Assembly (NCBI GenBank): GCA_937888725.1
Contig: CALARE010000005.1
Location: 2,884-66,883, forward strand
Direction: 5' to 3'
DNA: 64,000 nucleotides
DNA from: an uncultured Alphaproteobacteria bacterium
GTDB lineage: Bacteria; Pseudomonadota; Alphaproteobacteria; CAAHEQ01; UBA3637
The notes below the pieces were generated by a model. It had not been told where the DNA came from and ran no database searches. It saw nothing but the letters and a program-made list of their open reading frames with translations. This document shows, piece after piece, positions 10,643 through 20,766 of the stretch; position 1 is the stretch's first letter, and every line of letters begins with the position of its first letter. A program made the translations under genes and the position numbers.

Positions 10643-10679
10643 ATAAAAAAAACAGATAGAAAATTCTATCTGTTTTTGT
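10643..10679 (-). terminator. Rho-independent terminator after the pilin-like gene
   Basis: Hairpin ACAGATAG-aaaatt-CTATCTGT flanked by A and T runs. Confidence 0.6.
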
Positions 10680-10683
10680 AAGG

Positions 10684-11085
10684 TTATTTTAAAGCTTTCC
10701 CAAATTTTAAGACGATATCGCATTTGTACCCCGTCCCATCAATCGTAACAGATGTTTTGTTTTGTTTATATGCTGTTGCTTGTGCTTTAAAGGCGGAGAA
10801 AAAACGAGGCTCATTAAATCCTTGAAGACAGACATTCCCCGCATCATCCATACGCATTTCAATGCCACTTGTCTTATCCATACCAGCGGCAGCCAAATTA
10901 ACAAAAGATCTACCGCCAACCCCCTTGGCTGAAAATTTTGTAGCGTAATCTAAGATATTATTAATACGGATACGTTGGTTTGCCATACTAAAACCCGCAA
11001 CCCCACCAATTGATAAAATACCAATAATTGAAAGTACAGCGAGCATTTCGACCATGGAACGACCTGTTTGTGTATTTTTACTCAT
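10684..11085 (-). CDS. Prepilin-type N-terminal cleavage/methylation domain protein (type IV pilin/pseudopilin-like), paralog 1
   Basis: N-terminus MSKNTQTG|RSMVEMLAVLSIIGILSIGGVAGF: a Gly, Glu at +5, then a hydrophobic helix. C-terminal Cys pair. AGGAGG RBS. Confidence 0.8.
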   Translation of the reverse strand: MSKNTQTGRSMVEMLAVLSIIGILSIGGVAGFSMANQRIRINNILDYATKFSAKGVGGRSFVNLAAAGMDKTSGIEMRMDDAGNVCLQGFNEPRFFSAFKAQATAYKQNKTSVTIDGTGYKCDIVLKFGKALK

Positions 11086-11100: not shown

Positions 11101-13728
11101 TTAATCTTTAATTGCACCACAACAATGTTTATATTTTTTACCTGATCCACAAGGGCAAGGTGCATTGCGTGATATCTGCCCTTCTGGTGTTGAAAAAGGA
11201 TTTTCTGTGGTTGGATTGACAGGATGTGGATGACTTTCTTTAATCTCATCTACAGGTTTTGTCTGTACTTGAAACTGCATTTGACAAATCAGCTCTGTTA
11301 CTTTTTCACGAACCTTATTTAACAATGACTCAAAAAGAATAAAAGCTTCTCTTTTATATTCGTTAAGAGGGTTGCGTTGTCCATAAGCTCTTAAATTGAT
11401 AGCTGTTTTCATAAAATCAAGTGTTTGTAAATGCTCTTTCCAAAGTTGGTCAATTGTTTGAATTAAAATACTTTTTTCCAAATTATTGCGAATATCATCG
11501 GGTAAGATAGCCATTTTTGAATCGATTTCTTTTTGAATAATCGTATTTAATCGTTCAATCATTGTTTCAGGCAAAATACCAAGTTCGTTTACCCAAGAAT
11601 GAAAAGGAACATCAACAGCAAATTTCTTTAAAACTGCTTCATGAAGTTGTGCAGGATTCCAATCTGATGGATTTGAACGCTCAGGAGCTAAATCATAAAT
11701 CAGATTTTGAATAGTGTCCAATCTCATATCACTTAATGTGTCAGAAACTGATTGGGCAAGCATTAATTCACGTCTTTGCTCATAGATAGCTTTTCGTTGA
11801 TCATTCATGACATCGTCAAATTTTAACAAATTTTTACGAATATCAAAATGGTAAGTTTCAACCTTTTTTTGTGCAACCGCAAGTGCTTTAGTGATATAGT
11901 TATGCGTGATTGGTTCGCCCTTCTTTAGTCCTAATCTGGTTAAAATATTTTGAATGCGATTAGCTCCAAAAATACGCATCAAATCATCTTCAAGTGAAAC
12001 ATAGAATTTTGATAACCCAGGGTCGCCTTGTCTACCAGAACGACCACGCAATTGGTTGTCAATTCGGCGACTTTCATGGCGTTCTGAACCGAGGACAAAA
12101 AGGCCACCAGCCGCCAAAACTTGCTCTTTCTTTTTTTGGACATCTTCTTTTATTTGTTTTAAAAGGAGGTCTTTATCTGCTGTTGGATTTTTTTCTAATG
12201 CTTCTTGAAAAAGCATTTCAACATTGCCGCCTAATTGAATATCGGTTCCACGACCAGCCATATTTGTTGCAATGGTAACAGCCCCTGGTGCACCAGCTTG
12301 TGCAATGATTTTTGCCTCTTGTTCGTGGTGACGTGCGTTAAGAACATTAAAAGGGATATCTGTTGCTTTTTTCATTAAATCAGCAAGAATTTCTGATTTT
12401 TCAATTGAGCCTGTCCCGATTAAAATAGGTTGCCCTTTTTTATGAGCTTCCTTCACATCAGCAATGATAGCGTCATATTTTTCTTCAGCTGTACGATAAA
12501 TGAGGTCATTTTCATCTTTTCTTTGAGGCGTTTTATTCGTTGGAATTTCAATAACTTGCAAATGATATATATCATCAAACTCGCCCGCTTCTGTCATTGC
12601 TGTACCTGTCATACCAGCTAATTTAGGGTACATTCTAAAATAGTTTTGGAATGTAATGGAAGCAAGTGTTTGATTTTCAGGTTGAATTTCAACACCCTCT
12701 TTAGCTTCAATTGCTTGATGTAACCCATCAGAATAACGTCGCCCATGCATCATTCGTCCAGTAAACTCATCAATAATAATAACCTGCCCATCTTTTACGA
12801 TATAATCTTTATCTCTTGTAAATAATGTATTCGCACGCAAAGCTTGGTCAATATGGTGGACGAAGGCAATATTATGTGTATCATAGAGTGAGCCTTGAAT
12901 CAAATTAGAATCAGCAAGTAACCCCTCAACATATTCAGAACCAAGTTCAGTTAATGATACGTTTTTATGTTTTTCATCCTTTTCATAGTGTTCTGGCTTG
13001 ATGGATTTCATTAATTTATCAATGGCAATATATCTTTCGGATGAATTTTCGGCTGGACCTGAAATAATAAGAGGTGTTCTGGCCTCATCGATTAAGATAG
13101 AATCGACTTCATCAACAATGGCATAATAAAAAGGACGTTGCACCATTTCTTTGATTTCAAAACGCATATTATCTCTTAAATAATCAAACCCAAGTTCGTT
13201 ATTTGTCGCATAGGTAATATCAGCGTTATAGGCGGCTCTACGGTCAGTTGTTGACATGTCATGCACAATACAACCAACACTTAATCCTAAAAAGCGGTAT
13301 ATTTGTCCCATCCACTCGCTATCACGTTTTGCCAAATAGTCGTTCACCGTTACAACGTGAACGCCTTTGCCTGTTAAAGCATTTAAGTAAACAGGCATTG
13401 TTGCGACCAAAGTTTTCCCTTCACCAGTTCGCATTTCTGCAATTTGGCCATTGTTTAAAATAATACCACCCAATAATTGCACATCGAAAGGGCGTAACCC
13501 TAAAACACGTTTAGAAGCTTCTCTGACGCTTGCAAATGCTTCTGGTAAAATACTTTCTAAGCTTTCTCCATTTTGAATGCGTGTTTTGTATTCATCAGTT
13601 TTACTTTTAAGTTGCTCATCACTTAAAAGTTCATATTGAGCCTCAAGCTCGTTGATTTTATTGATGGTTTTTTTGAATTTTTTTAAATATCTGTCATTGG
13701 CAGAACCGAAAATACTTTTTAAAAACAT
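11101..13728 (-). CDS. secA: Preprotein translocase ATPase SecA
   Basis: Typical SecA N-terminus [29 protein letters not shown] Walker [20 protein letters not shown], and the C-terminal zinc motif [15 protein letters not shown] moved the start to the ATG at 13728 (AGGAAG RBS); the track ORF extends to 13770. Confidence 0.97.
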
Positions 13729-13836
13729 AATCTTCCTTTCATTGCTCTGAATGATTTTTAAATAATCCATTTTTATGCTAAAGTCAAGGATTTCTTATCT
13801 TATTATAATCGATTGATTTTGATGTGTTTGTTTAGA

Positions 13837-14628
13837 TTATTTTTCTTGTGATAAAGCGAATTGGATTTTTAGAATATCCTTACCAATTTGTGGAAGTGGG
13901 TCCATCGCTAAAATGGGTGTTTGCGTACGGATAGCTTCTCTTGCAAAAGAATCTAAATGAAGGATTCCCGCTAAAGCAGGTGTAAGATTTAAGAATGATT
14001 GGCAAGCTTTTGAAAGTGTATAATAAGTGTGTTCTCCTTCTGTTAATGTGTTTGCCATATTTATCAATATTTGAATATTGGGTATAATGGTTCCGCTTGT
14101 CATAATTTTGATAAATGCATATGCATCTGCAAGAGCTGTGGGTGTATCTGTTGTAACAATTAATAAATTATTGGCAATTGATGCCATCATTGATGTTGAT
14201 TTTAATATACCAGATCCAAGATCTATAATAACTCTATCATAATGTTGAGCTAAAATTTTAATGTCATCACATAAAAGTTGTAATCTGCTTTCATCAAGTC
14301 CTGCGAGCGTTTGACTACCCGAATGTCCAGCTAATACATCACAGTGAATAGTTTCATCATGTGTGATTGCATTATTAATAGGTATATTATGGCAAAGAAC
14401 AGTCGCCAAATCTTTTGTTGTTGCAAGTCCGAGTTGGATATCGATATTTGACAACCCTAAATCCCCATCGATAAGGAGAACTTTTTCACCTTTAAGAGCA
14501 AAAGCATGTGCGAGAGAAATAGCGATAAATGTTTTTCCAACGCCTCCTTTGCCTGAAGCGATAGCAATAATATTTTTCCCATTTAAATTGTGTGTCTGGA
14601 TTTGGTTTTGTTTATTTGTTTCAATCAT
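13837..14628 (-). CDS. flhG: MinD/ParA-family ATPase, FlhG (YlxH)-like flagellar number regulator
   Basis: Deviant Walker A SGKGGVGKT followed by LLIDGDLGLSNIDIQLG. Located directly downstream of flhF. Confidence 0.75.
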   Translation of the reverse strand: MIETNKQNQIQTHNLNGKNIIAIASGKGGVGKTFIAISLAHAFALKGEKVLLIDGDLGLSNIDIQLGLATTKDLATVLCHNIPINNAITHDETIHCDVLAGHSGSQTLAGLDESRLQLLCDDIKILAQHYDRVIIDLGSGILKSTSMMASIANNLLIVTTDTPTALADAYAFIKIMTSGTIIPNIQILINMANTLTEGEHTYYTLSKACQSFLNLTPALAGILHLDSFAREAIRTQTPILAMDPLPQIGKDILKIQFALSQEK

Positions 14629-14643
14629 TATAGACGGTGCTCC

Positions 14644-15597
14644 TTAAAAAATGGGTGAGGTAAAAAGTTTTGTTAAATTTTCAGCGGTTGCTTCAATAGG
14701 CGGTTCAACAATTTTGTCAGACAAACAAAAACCAGCACAATAAAGTTGGTTGAATAATAATGTTTGTAATAGATTATAATATTTGATTGAACAATCAAGT
14801 TGTGTTGCAATTAACAAGTTGCAACCACTTTTTGTGAATAATGCACCTTGAGCAACCGATTCTTGTGGATCAAGACCAGCAGGCATGGTTAAAACAAATT
14901 CTGCATCGCTGAGCTGTTGTCTCATGTTTTTTAATAGATCTAATTCTTTTTCTTTATAAGGGTTGATACTGGGTGTATCAACTAGAATATAGTCGGCAGA
15001 TAACCTTAATAATGTAAGTGTTTCATTGAGATCTTTTGTGTTTTTGACAACGGTACATGGAACTTTTAATATATCAGCAAATGTTTGCATATCTGAAAGA
15101 GCACCACTTTTTTTTGTGTCAAGTGTTACAAGAGCTAATTTTAAACCTTCTTTTTTTGCTTGTAATGCCATTTTTTTGAGAGTAAGTGTTTTGCCAGACC
15201 CCGCATTTCCAATAAAAACATAAATGGTGTTAGAAATAATGGGGTATATTGGTTTAAAATGGAACAATTCTGCAAAGACAAAATCCAATAATTTGCTGTC
15301 GGGTATTTTTGTTGTTTTTTTTAATGATGTTTGAACAATTCGTTCAATAAAAGAATCGGGTAATTCGTGTGTTTTTAAAAGCGTTTGAAAATAAAGTTTT
15401 CTTGATTTTTTTCTTTCATCGTTTAAGGTGTTGAATAAATCATCTTCTGAAATATTTTCTTCTGTTGCAACGATAAGTTTTACACCATTTGATGATGTGC
15501 GAGTTGTTGATATAATAACAGCATTGTCACCATAAATTGAACGAATTTCTTCAATTGCTTGTGGTATATTGGGTGCAAAAAATGTTTTTAGTTTCAC
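14644..15597 (-). CDS. flhF: Flagellar biosynthesis GTPase FlhF (short form)
   Basis: N-terminus MKLKTFFAPNIPQAIEEIRSIYGDNAVIIS matches the conserved FlhF start. SRP-type G domain GNAGSGKTLT ... DTPSINP. GTG start overlapping the upstream stop (GTGA). Confidence 0.8.
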   Translation of the reverse strand: MKLKTFFAPNIPQAIEEIRSIYGDNAVIISTTRTSSNGVKLIVATEENISEDDLFNTLNDERKKSRKLYFQTLLKTHELPDSFIERIVQTSLKKTTKIPDSKLLDFVFAELFHFKPIYPIISNTIYVFIGNAGSGKTLTLKKMALQAKKEGLKLALVTLDTKKSGALSDMQTFADILKVPCTVVKNTKDLNETLTLLRLSADYILVDTPSINPYKEKELDLLKNMRQQLSDAEFVLTMPAGLDPQESVAQGALFTKSGCNLLIATQLDCSIKYYNLLQTLLFNQLYCAGFCLSDKIVEPPIEATAENLTKLFTSPIF

Positions 15598-16916
15598 TTT
15601 TTCCTCTTATATTTTTTATCAATTAAGATACGTGCCTTTTTTAATATAAAAAATTGTGCTTGGTCAATTTCTTTTATTTTTTTTGTTTGAGCTAGGTCGA
15701 GCATTTTTAAGAAATTTCCCCATTGTTTGGGATGCATATTTTTTGCAAAAATAGAACGTGTGTCATTATTTGCACCCAAAAGTGCTTTTGTTAAAATATG
15801 CTCGGGTGTTTTTTTGATTATATAACAAATATCACTATCATTCCAATAGGCAAAATCATCAAAACAAACAATTTGCCTTGATAGGACTTCAGCTGTTTTT
15901 TGTGAGTGGTTTTCAAGAGCTGATATAAGTTTTTTTCTTTCAATGCTTGGCATTAAGCTTAAAATGGCTGAAGCTTTTTGCCACCCGTAATAAAAAATTT
16001 GAGGTTGAATATTTAAAAAATGATTTTCCAATTTTGTTTCAATTGTTTTAATGCGTGTTCTTGAAAGAGATTTTAAGGCTGTTAGGCGAAAAAGTGTTAA
16101 TCCTGAGAGATTTTCTGGCAATAAATTAAGTATTTCAGCTGATTTTTCTTCCGATAAATTATAAAGAATAATGGCGATAGATTGGGGAGATTGTGTTTTT
16201 AAATATGATACAATTATATCAGCGGGTATTTGATTGAGTGTTTTCCAAATATCTTTTTGATATGATGTTAAATTTTGATTTTTCAGAATTTGAATTGCTT
16301 GTTGATGTGGCAGTGTTGGTTGCAAGGGATAATTATCAAATGGACTTAAGGCAGGAGCTGTAACTTCATTTAAAAAATTAGATAACGCATTTTTTTTATC
16401 TTCATTTGAAATCTCACCCAAACAAGAAATGAGTTGATGCAACAAAGTAACTTCTTTTGCGGTAAAGCGTTTAAACAATTTTTTTATAGATCGTGCATTC
16501 AAACAAGTGAGAATAATAGCCGCTTGTTGTGGCGGGGAAAAGAGGTTTTTTTCGCTATCCGAAGGTGGCATTGATAAATATCGTCTAATTATTTTTAATG
16601 TCAATTCGGGGGTTGTATTTGTCAACTGTTGTGCTTTTTTTAAAAATTGATGTAATTCTTCTCTTGTATTTTGATTTTCGCAAAGCAAATCAGCCTGTTG
16701 AAATAGCTCGTCATAAATCTGTTTTAGCTTAATGTTTCCTAACTGTTTTGAAATAAAAAAAACAATTAAAACAAATATAGGAACAAGACATATCGCATAA
16801 TTAAAAGGCATAATATCAACATTTAGGATGACATGAGATACTGTAAAGTAAAACATCCCTGTGATTGCCACAAGAAAAGGTATGAAAAAAACAATCTGTG
16901 ACCAAACTTTTACCAT
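15594..16916 (-). CDS. Membrane-anchored FliG-like protein
   Basis: Two N-terminal TM helices within aa 1-56. FliG-like segments follow: QQAAIILTCLNARSIKKLFKRFTAKEV (FliG-N-like), SPQSIAIILYNLSEEKSAEILNLLPENL (EHPQ-region-like) and IVCFDDFAYWNDSDICYIIKKTPEHILTKALLGANNDTRSIFAKNM (FliG-C MFxF / ALKGA-like). Confidence 0.6.
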   Translation of the reverse strand: MVKVWSQIVFFIPFLVAITGMFYFTVSHVILNVDIMPFNYAICLVPIFVLIVFFISKQLGNIKLKQIYDELFQQADLLCENQNTREELHQFLKKAQQLTNTTPELTLKIIRRYLSMPPSDSEKNLFSPPQQAAIILTCLNARSIKKLFKRFTAKEVTLLHQLISCLGEISNEDKKNALSNFLNEVTAPALSPFDNYPLQPTLPHQQAIQILKNQNLTSYQKDIWKTLNQIPADIIVSYLKTQSPQSIAIILYNLSEEKSAEILNLLPENLSGLTLFRLTALKSLSRTRIKTIETKLENHFLNIQPQIFYYGWQKASAILSLMPSIERKKLISALENHSQKTAEVLSRQIVCFDDFAYWNDSDICYIIKKTPEHILTKALLGANNDTRSIFAKNMHPKQWGNFLKMLDLAQTKKIKEIDQAQFFILKKARILIDKKYKRKK

Positions 16917-17008: not shown

Positions 17009-17317
17009 TCACTCTCTTTTGAGCGTGATTGTTTGAATAATTTGACCACTTTGCGGTTCAATGACTAAAATTTTATTTTTCTGATTATCTTGGTTTGTTG
17101 ATATGCAAATGTATTGATGGCAAGAAAAAATATTTGAGATGGTTTCATTTTTATCTAATTGAAGGGTTGTATTTTTTGACTCAGCAAGCACGATTTTATT
17201 TTTATGGTTGCTTTTAAGATGGGTATCTGTTATTTTTGAAATAACAAGGCAAAAACAAGCAATCAAAAGGATTGAAAAAATAAAAACAACAAATTTAGCA
17301 ATTTTAAGAGCGGACAT
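17009..17317 (-). CDS. Small N-terminally anchored hypothetical protein
   Basis: 102 aa from the ATG at 17317 (AAGGAAA RBS). TM segment IAKFVVFIFSILLIACFCLVI. The longer track ORF (to 17698) is antisense to rluD. Confidence 0.45.
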   Translation of the reverse strand: MSALKIAKFVVFIFSILLIACFCLVISKITDTHLKSNHKNKIVLAESKNTTLQLDKNETISNIFSCHQYICISTNQDNQKNKILVIEPQSGQIIQTITLKRE

Positions 17318-17345
17318 AACATTTCCTTTTGCTGAAAGATTAAAA

Positions 17346-18368
17346 ATGAGTGATGAACAATATAACGATGATTTTTTTGTAATGGATGAGATTAAGTATA
17401 CCCAAAATGAGCCTCTTGTCACGAAAAAAGTGGCTAGTGATGAAAAAAATATGCGTTTGGATAAATTTTTGGTTCTTTGTTTTCCAACATATTCACGTGC
17501 AAGGATGATTAAATTTATTGAAACAGATTGTGTTAAGTTTGTTGGGCAAGATAAATATGCAGATAAGGCTGATTTAAAGGTTAAAGAAGGGGATGCATTT
17601 ATCATAACAATGCCTGAAAGTGTGCCCGCAACACCACAGCCTGAAAAAATTGATATTGATATTTTATATGAAGATGCAGATTTGATTGTCGTGAACAAAC
17701 CAGCTGGAATGGTGGTTCATCCAGGTGCGGGTAATTACACGGGTACGCTTGTGAATGCTCTTTTATATCATTGTCGGGAATCGTTATCAGGAATTGGTGG
17801 TGTTTTAAGGCCTGGCATTGTGCATCGAATTGATAAGGATACAAGCGGTGTTCTTGTTGTGGCAAAAAATGATTTTGCTCATACGCATTTGGCTGAGCAA
17901 TTTTCAAAACATACCATTGAGCGTGTCTATCATGCCTTTGTTTGGAATGTGTTAAAAAAGAAGGATGGTATTGTGTCATCATTGATTGGGCGGAGTTCTT
18001 CTAACCGTCAAAAAATGGCAATTGTAACTCAAAATGGGAAACATGCTGTAACGCATTATGAATGTTTGGCAAGCTATCCAAAAGCTCCTGCTTCATATGT
18101 GAAATGCGTTTTAGAAACGGGTAGAACCCATCAAATTAGGGTTCATATGTCTTCATTAGGACATTCCTTAATAGGGGATAGTGTTTATGGAACTGTGCCA
18201 AAAATGGCTGATTCTCGTTTGAGATTTTTCAATCGTCAAGCTTTGCATGCTGGTTTTTTAAGTTTTGTTCATCCAAAAACAAATGAAAGGATATCCTTTT
18301 CAGCTCCATTACCAACAGATATGCAAGCGTTAAAAGATCTTCTTGAAGACGAATTTGTTATAAAATAA
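17346..18368 (+). CDS. rluD: 23S rRNA pseudouridine synthase, RluD/RluA family
   Basis: S4-like MRLDKFLV, catalytic HRIDKDTSGVLVVAK, and GRTHQIRVH. The start is set at MSDEQYN (17346) rather than the track start at 17208. Confidence 0.9.
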   Translation: MSDEQYNDDFFVMDEIKYTQNEPLVTKKVASDEKNMRLDKFLVLCFPTYSRARMIKFIETDCVKFVGQDKYADKADLKVKEGDAFIITMPESVPATPQPEKIDIDILYEDADLIVVNKPAGMVVHPGAGNYTGTLVNALLYHCRESLSGIGGVLRPGIVHRIDKDTSGVLVVAKNDFAHTHLAEQFSKHTIERVYHAFVWNVLKKKDGIVSSLIGRSSSNRQKMAIVTQNGKHAVTHYECLASYPKAPASYVKCVLETGRTHQIRVHMSSLGHSLIGDSVYGTVPKMADSRLRFFNRQALHAGFLSFVHPKTNERISFSAPLPTDMQALKDLLEDEFVIK

Positions 18369-20304: not shown

Positions 20305-20766
20305 TTAGTTTTGTTTGATGCTGAAACTAACCTTGTTGTTTGAAGCACAATCATTTGTTCCACCAACAATTGAACCAAATGCATTACAAAGTTTATTATC
20401 ATTGAATGTTACACTAATTGTAACTTCGTCTGCAGCTAGACTTCCACCAGCACTGATACCTGTAACTTTCATCTCTGTGACGCCACTTGGAGGGTTGCCC
20501 AAACCTGCACTTGATGGTGTCATATTTTTTGTAGCAGAAGAACAAACTGATGAATCAGCATTGTCTGAGCCACTATTTAACATTTCATTTTGACAAGCTG
20601 AATATGCAACGAGAGCCAATTTTGCAGCTGTATCAGCAACGCCGTTTGCACGGTGACGACGCATTGAAAGTGTGTAACCAGCGATACCGCCGACTGATAA
20701 AACACCGATAATAGCTAAAACGCCAAGCATTTCAACCATTGAACGACCAGATTCCAATTTTTTCAT
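20305..20766 (-). CDS. Prepilin-type N-terminal domain protein (type IV pilin-like), paralog 2
   Basis: MKKLESG|RSMVEMLGVLAIIGVLSVGGIAGY. Several Cys residues in the C-terminal half could form disulfide pairs. Confidence 0.8.
   Translation of the reverse strand: MKKLESGRSMVEMLGVLAIIGVLSVGGIAGYTLSMRRHRANGVADTAAKLALVAYSACQNEMLNSGSDNADSSVCSSATKNMTPSSAGLGNPPSGVTEMKVTGISAGGSLAADEVTISVTFNDNKLCNAFGSIVGGTNDCASNNKVSFSIKQN

Follow-up and report, generated by a model that had tools for sequence, protein, structure and literature searches.

In a 64,000-nucleotide stretch of contig CALARE010000005.1 from an uncultured alphaproteobacterium (assembly GCA_937888725.1, positions 2,884 to 66,883; 1.68 Mb, 99.95% complete, ~33% G+C), hereafter the window, three adjacent genes encode a 440-amino-acid (aa) FliF-FliG fusion with no periplasmic ring domain, an FlhF-like GTPase, and an FlhG ATPase. 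We are highly confident in this identification. FlhF and FlhG ordinarily determine where flagella are placed. The fusion, FlhF, and FlhG are the sole flagellar genes left in the genome, and their retention probably serves a purpose other than swimming. In the interpretation that we favor, with a probability of roughly 0.55, the ring-less fusion has been retained as a membrane-tethered scaffold for FlhF and FlhG, which would make the module a repurposed form of the complex with which flagellar assembly starts.

The first-pass annotation of the window described the 440-aa open reading frame (ORF) as a protein with two N-terminal transmembrane (TM) helices followed by FliG N, middle, and C domains. 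Pfam profiles and Foldseek agree on the FliG body. All three FliG domains exceeded their gathering scores (Table 1). Against TIGR00207, the FliG equivalog model, the protein reached 92.9 bits relative to a cut-off of 226.7, and by these scores it classes as a FliG homolog and not as an equivalog. We built an AlphaFold2 (AF2) model from 9 sequences and used it to search the PDB. Each of the 13 best matches was a FliG protein, with E values between 2.5e-10 and 4e-6 at prob 1.0, and those from Salmonella and Aquifex ranked first (E = 2.5e-10). The modeled C-terminal domain superposed on that of Thermotoga maritima FliG (1QC7) with a TMt of 0.83 and a root mean square deviation of 2.0 Å. An MgtE_N protein or a generic ARM-repeat protein was considered as well and was rejected by profile and fold. 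The MgtE_N match in Pfam was weak and secondary (29.8 bits, E = 9e-7, residues 220 to 269) and lay beneath the FliG_M match, Pfam profiles identified no CBS or MgtE transporter domains in the 440-aa protein, and MgtE structures matched the AF2 model with E values of ~0.7 or worse.

Within the FliG body, the middle domain is the most conserved segment of the short fusions found in the window and its nearest relatives. It carries invariant columns and the motifs Q245..IAIILYNLS..K258 and R277-LTALK, and its conservation is the highest although the genome lacks FliM. In place of the EHPQ motif of Escherichia coli FliG, the window has QSPQ; the Arg at the position of R160 is retained. The torque helix tells a different story. 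In alignment to E. coli FliG, the MotA-contacting charged residues K264, R281, D288, D289, and R297 correspond to L, K, K, M, and K, so that all five have been replaced. The same five charges are conserved in the separate FliG proteins of related genomes that keep MotA. In the fusions, all of them are replaced except K264, which is kept in two genera (g7 and g10) and appears as Arg in a third (g15). Loss of MotA and loss of the FliG torque charges coincide across the family. Judged from these alignments, the FliG of the window has lost its stator-contact charges.

The N-terminal helices have a traceable origin. Hydropathy peaks at approximately residues 4 to 27 and 33 to 57, the N terminus is conserved from Met1 among orthologs, both helices align with TM1 and TM2 of FliF, and codons 1 to 60 had a ratio of nonsynonymous to synonymous differences (pN/pS) of 0.28 to 0.43 among three orthologs, similar to that of the FliG body. 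Lysines flank both ends of the TM hairpin, which fits an N-in/C-in topology. Moreover, the 440-aa protein aligns end to end with the long FliF(RBM3)-FliG fusions of its relatives. The anchor in that alignment consists of TM1, a short loop, TM2, a linker, and the FliF C-terminal tail PELTLKIIRRYL, with FliG_N beginning ~10 residues farther on. The tail aligns with AVNVLRNWL and AVTVIRSWLYQ of mini-FliF proteins and long fusions; its residues P103 and R111 are invariant in the ortholog alignment (A1), and its helix at residues 103 to 115 had a block pLDDT (predicted local distance difference test) of ~68 to 84 in the AF2 model. This segment of FliF binds FliG_N in flagella, and the tail is predicted to do so here. 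In the alignment of all forms, a loop of ~8 residues stands where relatives have a periplasmic RBM3 domain of ~190 residues, and profile and hidden Markov model (HMM) searches found neither PF01514 (RBM1-2) nor PF08345 (RBM3) in the 440-aa protein or in the genome of the window. The idea of a FliG with its own membrane anchor was therefore half right: the anchor is real, and by this alignment it is not FliG's own or a new addition but a remnant of FliF, left after FliF and FliG were fused and the periplasmic ring domain was lost. The first-pass annotation had touched on FliF-FliG fusions, but just briefly. We also considered that the start had been mis-called and that a soluble FliG begins at Met116, and rejected this given the conservation of Met1, the alignment of TM1, TM2, and the tail with FliF, and purifying selection on residues 1 to 125 in orthologs. 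Thus, both ways in which the initial description could have failed, an MgtE-like protein in place of FliG and a mis-called start, were looked at with negative results.

The second gene of the module encodes a 317-aa protein with an SRP54 GTPase domain (Pfam, 59.3 bits). Its best NCBIfam model was FlhF (TIGR03499), with 119.5 bits, which is below the cut-off of 174.15, and its best PDB match was FlhF of Bacillus subtilis (2PX0). The protein is made up of a FliG-interaction domain (FID; residues 1 to 47), a linker of ~70 aa, and a probable NG domain with an intact G1 motif (GNAGSGKT, versus the consensus GxxGxGKT). Residues 2 to 47 matched the whole 53-residue FlhF chain of PDB entry 9EN1 (E = 0.0027), which we take, from its chain length and name, to be the FID crystal structure of Dornes et al. 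The short FlhF with a classic N terminus that had been noted at the outset is thus recovered, and the match to 9EN1 indicates that this N terminus is a retained FID. In Shewanella putrefaciens, the FID of FlhF binds FliG-MC while FliG remains bound to the FliF C terminus (Dornes et al. 2024, PMC11236974). Coordinates and sequence also confirm that the stop codon of the fusion gene overlaps the GTG start of flhF as GTGA (context aaaaaGTGAaa). An AGAGGA Shine-Dalgarno-like motif lies just 5′ of the GTG, and by this arrangement FlhF is translationally coupled to the fusion gene.

FlhG, a MinD-type ATPase that controls flagellar number, activates FlhF through a DQAxxLR motif and is targeted to the membrane by a C-terminal amphipathic helix. 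That flhG follows flhF in the window, as the first-pass annotation had it, is borne out by the best PDB matches of the 263-aa ORF. These were FlhG of Geobacillus (4RZ2, 125.7 bits) and FleN of Pseudomonas (5J1J, 114.5 bits), with MinD proteins scoring 65 bits at most. On this basis, the protein is an FlhG/FleN-type MinD-like ATPase that is nearer to FlhG and FleN than to MinD. Its deviant Walker A motif (SGKGGVGKT) and its DGD motif are intact, and the second Asp of the latter aligns with a residue that is Ala in 4RZ3. Elsewhere in the family, FlhG-like ORFs with open frames lie by secA without FlhF, FliG, or both (L057, L058, L059, L024, and L032); their Walker A motifs are degenerate or destroyed, examples being AAGRANIGKS and RSISNQTALN.

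The absence of flhA and of any other flagellar gene, which had been noted for the 64 kb, extends to the whole genome. Profile searches of the window's own genome recovered no FlhA, PF01514, FliMN_C, rod family, flagellin, or FliP. HMMs derived from the FliN, MotA, and mini-FliF proteins of relatives found nothing there either, and a lone weak match of the MotA/ExbB/TolQ type is most likely TolQ or ExbB. A tblastn search in which 48 proteins of flagella and chemotaxis from E. coli served as queries also yielded nothing flagellar, but it was insensitive, missing even the window's own FliG; for that reason, it was superseded by the searches with Pfam profiles and relatives' HMMs. FliMN_C had no matches in the genome of the window or in the 11 other searched genomes of its genus. 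At the level of the family, neither FlhA nor the FliF N-part PF01514 was detected in any of 49 genomes by profile search. Flagellin and FliP were likewise absent from 61 searched genomes, among which the rod/hook family PF00460 had one marginal match. Every one of the control genomes expected to be flagellated scored in these profile searches. In other families of the same class, FliG is almost always accompanied by FlhA and FliF. As a separate observation, two unrelated alphaproteobacteria of 5.0 Mb (G054; L028 6019-6978) and 3.1 Mb (G077; L029 5893-6984) encode a stand-alone, canonical-looking FliG (FliG_C, 135 to 147 bits) with no FlhA or FliF found. The neighbors of these genes, an IS1595 transposase, glnA, and gyrB, are not flagellar.

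The 440-aa protein has only nine close homologs (440 to 607 aa), all with FliG domains. When 81 related genomes were searched with an alignment of these homologs, most members of the family turned out to carry a FliG-like gene in the same syntenic position between rluD and secA; a single-protein query gave no related loci. A homologous-protein search with the alignment added no sequences, and an exhaustive search covered 1.84 billion representatives. The named relatives are uncultured Alphaproteobacteria known from metagenome-assembled genomes, one of them from roe deer colon, and genome sizes in the family range from 0.9 to 2.0 Mb. At the locus, the order in relatives is rluD, a small ORF, the fusion gene, flhF, flhG, and secA, and it has been kept although the proteins are only 45 to 50% identical.

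Three main forms of the locus can be distinguished. Four genera have separate genes for mini-FliF, FliG, FliN, MotA, FlhF, and FlhG. Their mini-FliF (289 to 317 aa) contains PF08345 only, placed between two TM helices, and ends in the FliG-binding tail, and their FliG is soluble (338 to 363 aa). These genomes have a second cluster encoding FliL, FliM with an LSxxEIDALL N terminus, and a short MotB-like protein with a plug and a conserved TM Asp. The four genera thus keep what looks like a complete rotor and stator, possibly a “motor without a flagellum,” while the filament, hook, rod, and export gate are missing. The layout is seen at L019 3807-7867 and is the same at L020, L021, L022, L030, and L031; L049 6018-11450 belongs to this set as well. 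The second cluster also encodes a DUF6468 protein, a small MgtE_N/FliG_M-like protein, and an unknown protein of 623 aa; its MotB-like protein has 190 aa with no OmpA domain found, and its FliM keeps the CheY-binding N terminus. Long fusions of 571 to 645 aa, which unite PF08345 and the FliG domains in one protein, occur in most other genera and in part of the window's genus. FliN is still present in three of the long-fusion genera (g7, g10, and g16); two of these, g7 and g10, were inspected, and their loci carry no MotA. The short form, of 440 to 464 aa, is found in the window and its nearest relatives. A 575-aa protein (L035/P0003) is intermediate between the long and short forms, as its periplasmic segment is degenerate and no longer matches the RBM3 profile.

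The forms were also placed in a FliG tree. Here the separate FliG proteins have short branches and neighbor the canonical FliG of alphaproteobacteria, with the fusions farther away. Nested within their genus, the short forms are sister to the 575-aa form, and this pair is sister to fusions of 625 to 638 aa. In the exhaustive search, the short form was represented by two or three clusters (two full-length, of 440 to 451 aa, and one of 393 aa) and the long fusions by ~30. On these comparisons, the window is the end-member of a reductive series that runs from separate genes to an RBM3-containing fusion, a degenerate periplasmic domain, and finally a bare hairpin. The export gate, rod, hook, and filament were lost at the beginning, when the rotor/stator core and the placement proteins were still kept; the stator and switch were lost later, and the ring domain last.

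We compared the window with four orthologs and estimated the ratio of nonsynonymous to synonymous substitution rates (dN/dS; Table 1). All reading frames were open, with no stop codons, even though dS exceeded 1; since dS is saturated at this distance, the ratios are rough. Purifying selection acts on all three genes of the module, though less strongly than on the housekeeping genes.

What the module can do is constrained by what it has lost. By its predicted features, the 440-aa protein cannot be a rotor, because stator, torque charges, and C-ring partners are gone; it cannot be an MS ring, because it has no RBM; and it cannot serve as an export platform, because there are no export genes. 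Since the periplasmic collar has disappeared, the reason for which the module is kept must be independent of a FliF ring. The surviving set corresponds to the biochemically defined early complex, which makes a tethered FliG that docks FlhF and FlhG the simplest candidate mechanism. The trio would then represent the first intermediate of flagellar assembly, with the FliF C-terminal tail on FliG_N, the N-terminal domain of FlhF on FliG-MC, and FlhG acting on both. As a membrane-tethered scaffold, FliG would recruit FlhF and FlhG to a defined membrane site, which by analogy is probably polar. Active output would come from the FlhG ATPase, with FlhF serving as an adaptor that would bind nucleotide yet be largely non-catalytic. 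Such a function would appear to be useful but dispensable, because sister lineages have lost different parts of the module. Of the readings offered by the first-pass annotation, a repurposed remnant in a reduced genome and a polar landmark are both viable. A bolder proposal, which is possible but which we put forward only tentatively, is that the family has turned the first assembly intermediate into an autonomous cell-organizing system, a new positional (polar) landmark built from rotor parts. If true, the ring-less form would show that the conserved activity needs no MS-ring-like collar but merely a membrane-tethered FliG docking FlhF and FlhG, and the landmark would be akin to the recruitment of MinD/ParA relatives for positioning.

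Several results weigh against a working scaffold. The AF2 model is moderate overall (mean pLDDT 65.7; predicted TM-score [pTM] 0.32), with the FliG domains as its better parts. The catalytic motifs of FlhF downstream of G1 are degenerate, with DTKK at G2 (versus DTxR), DTPSI at G3 (versus DTAGR), and TQLD at G4 (versus TKxD); the Arg of G3 is missing family-wide already. In FlhG, DQAxxLR is absent from the N terminus (MIETNKQNQIQTHNLNGKN), and the alignment stops at residue 270 of the 295 in Geobacillus FlhG, leaving the C-terminal amphipathic membrane helix missing. Activation of FlhF and membrane targeting are the roles given to these two elements in the literature (see 10.1101/2022.03.19.484964), and because FlhG lacks both of them, the FlhF/FlhG cycle in its classical form is probably not operating here. 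The dN/dS of the fusion gene is 4 to 6 times that of secA, with the reservation that dS is saturated. Finally, the components are dispensable one by one, since different pieces of the module have been lost elsewhere in the family. In the window's own genus, three genomes (L054, L055 5914-7967, and L056 6048-8114) retain the small ORF, FlhF, FlhG, and secA without FliG, and their FlhF has lost the G2 (DTxR) segment too. One genus (g2) has the fusion alone, another (g3) the fusion with a short FlhG whose P-loop is destroyed; only FlhG is left in g8, part of g10, and g12, with a degenerate Walker A motif in the latter two; and g4 has lost the whole module. Loss of partners goes together with a degenerate or destroyed Walker A motif in FlhG and with loss of the G2 region in FlhF.

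Many of these results would also be expected of the main rival explanation, in which the genes have had no function since the flagellum was lost and their present form is simply decay. Mosaic, lineage-specific loss has touched every component, within the window's genus as well; the FlhF motifs have degenerated; the FlhG P-loops are destroyed in g3 and g12; of the genes at the locus, the fusion shows the highest dN/dS; and the hairpin of the window has diverged strongly from its nearest sampled orthologs. Small genomes usually purge dead genes quickly, however, and those of the family have 0.9 to 2.0 Mb. The frames are intact despite dS above 1, dN/dS lies between 0.07 and 0.36 and not near 1, a block of FliG_M residues is invariant, and at 45 to 50% protein identity the genes still keep their order and their translational coupling. 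For these reasons, we regard decay as unlikely. In another scenario, the FliF-FliG/FlhF remnant would keep FlhG at the poles, where FlhG would block polar Z-rings. There is precedent in Campylobacter jejuni, where FlhG acts with FlhF, FliF, FliM, and FliN in place of the Min system and inhibits polar division (Balaban and Hendrixson 2011, PMC3228812). Here, as there, a non-motility role of FlhG, FlhF, and basal-body parts would be involved and MinCDE is not detectable: tblastn with E. coli queries found no MinC or MinE in the genome, and the MinD query matched only ParA and the window's FlhG. FlhG is also the best-kept and most widely retained component of the module, with its ATPase motifs intact. 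C. jejuni, however, has complete flagella and required FliF, FliM, and FliN, not FliG, for this role, whereas FliM, FliN, and the FliF ring are all missing here, and our FlhG lacks the membrane-targeting helix. In addition, the genome has a clear MipZ (C59:2182-2988, 281 bits), the usual ATPase for Z-ring positioning in alphaproteobacteria. With MipZ present and MinC and MinE not found, Z-ring positioning is probably of the Caulobacter type, and since MipZ was found we consider a replacement of Min by FlhG distinctly unlikely.

Two further explanations draw on other features of the locus. One holds that the module is a placement factor for the Sec translocon or for a type-IV-pilin-like system, both encoded downstream in the same putative unit. 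The order of flhG, secA, and a pilin-like gene is conserved family-wide, with nothing but weak hairpins before the strong one that follows the pilin-like gene; in g5, a pilin-like gene even lies between flhG and secA; the genome encodes two T2SSE-type ATPases; and FlhF itself is a member of the SRP (signal recognition particle) family. Yet small ORF, secA, and pilin-like gene keep their order in genomes that lack the module (G023, G027, and G029), and at least three pilin-like genes are dispersed in the window. Because the order survives loss of the module, the linkage looks like inherited gene order, and we find a placement role improbable, still more so than one in division. The least probable explanation by far is the rotor module that the first-pass annotation had allowed for, a membrane-anchored FliG turning against a stator. 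The FliG N, M, and C domains are complete, and separate-gene relatives keep MotA, a MotB-like protein with its TM Asp, FliM, FliN, and FliL. In the window's own genome, however, there is no MotA ortholog, FliM, or FliN, all five torque-helix charges are replaced, and no ring-building domain is left, which makes a working motor extremely improbable.

The scaffold that we favor can be set beside several known systems. The early intermediate of S. putrefaciens (PMC11236974) has the same parts: FliF TM helices and C-terminal tail, FliG N, M, and C domains, FlhF with an FID and an NG domain, the latter probable in the window, and an FlhG/FleN ATPase. In polar flagellates, as here, FlhF and FlhG are encoded next to each other. 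Unlike the polar-flagellum set, however, the window has FliF and FliG in one polypeptide with RBM1 to RBM3 all missing and the torque charges lost, an FlhF in which the B-domain is cut to the FID plus ~70 residues and G2 to G4 are degenerate, an FlhG without DQAxxLR and the C-terminal helix, and neither flhA nor any other flagellar gene. The long fusions of the family are orthologous and syntenic, have also lost the stator charges, and come from flagellum-less genomes. They differ in the periplasmic PF08345/RBM3 between the TM helices, which could still form an S-ring-like collar and for which the window has its ~8-residue loop. A natural FliF-FliG fusion of ~330 aa is known from Chlamydiaceae (Bergeron 2016, PMC4768692), which are likewise without flagella; it too has a shortened FliF with two TM helices around a reduced periplasmic region. 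In contrast to the protein of the window, the chlamydial fusion retains RBM2 plus a second domain of RBM type, its cytosolic part resembles FliG_M alone, and it coexists with homologs of FlhA and FliI and with an injectisome. The window protein has no periplasmic domain, a full FliG, no export genes, and FlhF and FlhG as partners. Flagellar genes are also retained without motility in Buchnera, as basal bodies (PMC8109811), and in Lysobacter enzymogenes, as genes for the type III secretion system of flagella (FT3SS; PMC7688988). In these cases, as in ours, flagellar genes were kept after loss of motility, presumably in a new role. However, Buchnera and Lysobacter keep the type III export apparatus, presumably for secretion, whereas here export is gone and the rotor and placement side has been kept. 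Engineered FliF-FliG fusions serve in structural work, and in our search of the literature neither this family nor a ring-less FliF-FliG turned up as the subject of a paper.

In the usual view, FliF and FliG form the base of a rotating, secretion-competent machine and FlhF and FlhG are its regulators. Division phenotypes in Campylobacter and in spirochetes raise the question of whether FlhF and FlhG have roles beyond flagella. The series described here, within one reduced gut family, shows which parts outlast the flagellum, and what the window adds to it is the end-member, a FliF-FliG without a periplasmic collar. The finding offers a natural “minimal construct” for probing the roles of FlhF and FlhG apart from flagellum building, and it is natural evidence for the early FlhF-FliG-FliF(C) complex proposed on biochemical grounds. 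There is also a warning for annotation, in that the labels fliG, flhF, and flhG may suggest motility in organisms that cannot have a flagellum.

Table 1. Features of the module and its surroundings. Coordinates are positions in the window; dN/dS values are for the window against four orthologs and are rough because dS is saturated.
Feature	Coordinates	Strand	Description	dN/dS
Ring-less FliF-FliG fusion gene	15594..16916	minus	440 aa; Pfam FliG_N/M/C, fold, and end-to-end alignment	0.19-0.36
FliF-derived TM hairpin	16746..16904	minus	TM1 ~5-27, loop ~28-35, TM2 ~36-57; hydropathy and alignment	
FliF C-terminal tail	16572..16634	minus	Residues ~95-115, TTPELTLKIIRRYL; aligns with mini-FliF and long-fusion tails	
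FliG N-terminal domain	16281..16538	minus	Residues 127-212; PF14842, E 2.4e-12, 47.8 bits	
FliG middle domain	16008..16220	minus	Residues 233-303; PF14841, E 2.8e-16, 59.9 bits	
FliG C-terminal domain	15618..15920	minus	Residues 333-433; PF01706, E 1.6e-14, 54.5 bits	
flhF-like gene	14644..15597	minus	317 aa; GTG start	0.11-0.22
flhG gene	13837..14628	minus	263 aa	0.07-0.20
secA	11101..13770	minus	66 nt downstream of flhG	0.04-0.06
Pilin-like gene	10684..11085	minus	ORF; weak N_methyl match; N-terminus G|RSMVEML; syntenic in relatives	
Strong terminator-like hairpin	10648-10677		3′ of pilin-like gene; 13-pair stem, then T-run	
Small membrane ORF	17009..17317	minus	~102 aa; directly upstream of fusion gene, co-directional with module	
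rluD				0.05-0.14

Upstream of the fusion gene, the transcription unit probably opens with the small conserved membrane ORF. This ORF had no Pfam match at E ≤ 0.01. Orthologs of 98 to 135 aa occupy the same position in genera g1, g4, g8, g10, and g15, and in two genomes (G003 and G013) the end of the small ORF overlaps the start of FlhF. In another genome (G023), it has outlived the module, and for that reason we do not regard it as module-specific. The 229-aa minus-strand ORF with a TTG start listed at 17009-17698 is an over-extension of this gene, of which only the last ~102 codons are conserved. Similarly, the true start of the rluD ORF (17208-18368) is probably downstream of 17208, as orthologs have 333 to 344 aa. 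With the starts so placed, the small ORF and rluD do not overlap.

Downstream of the module, a terminator scan of the gap between flhG and secA found only weak terminator-like hairpins with 5-pair stems. The first strong hairpin in this run of genes is the one after the pilin-like gene, and secA may be co-transcribed with the module. The adjacency of flhG and secA is conserved family-wide. In one relative, a 688-aa version of the pilin-like protein is encoded between the two genes (L021 9904-11970). The pilin-like proteins encoded at 10684-11085 and 20305-20766 have the unusual N terminus G|RSMVEML, with Arg at +1, and at least three such genes are scattered in the window. Of the two T2SSE-type ATPases in the genome, the one encoded just outside the window (C5:71935-74217) has a long acidic N terminus with EDDLPPLP repeats.

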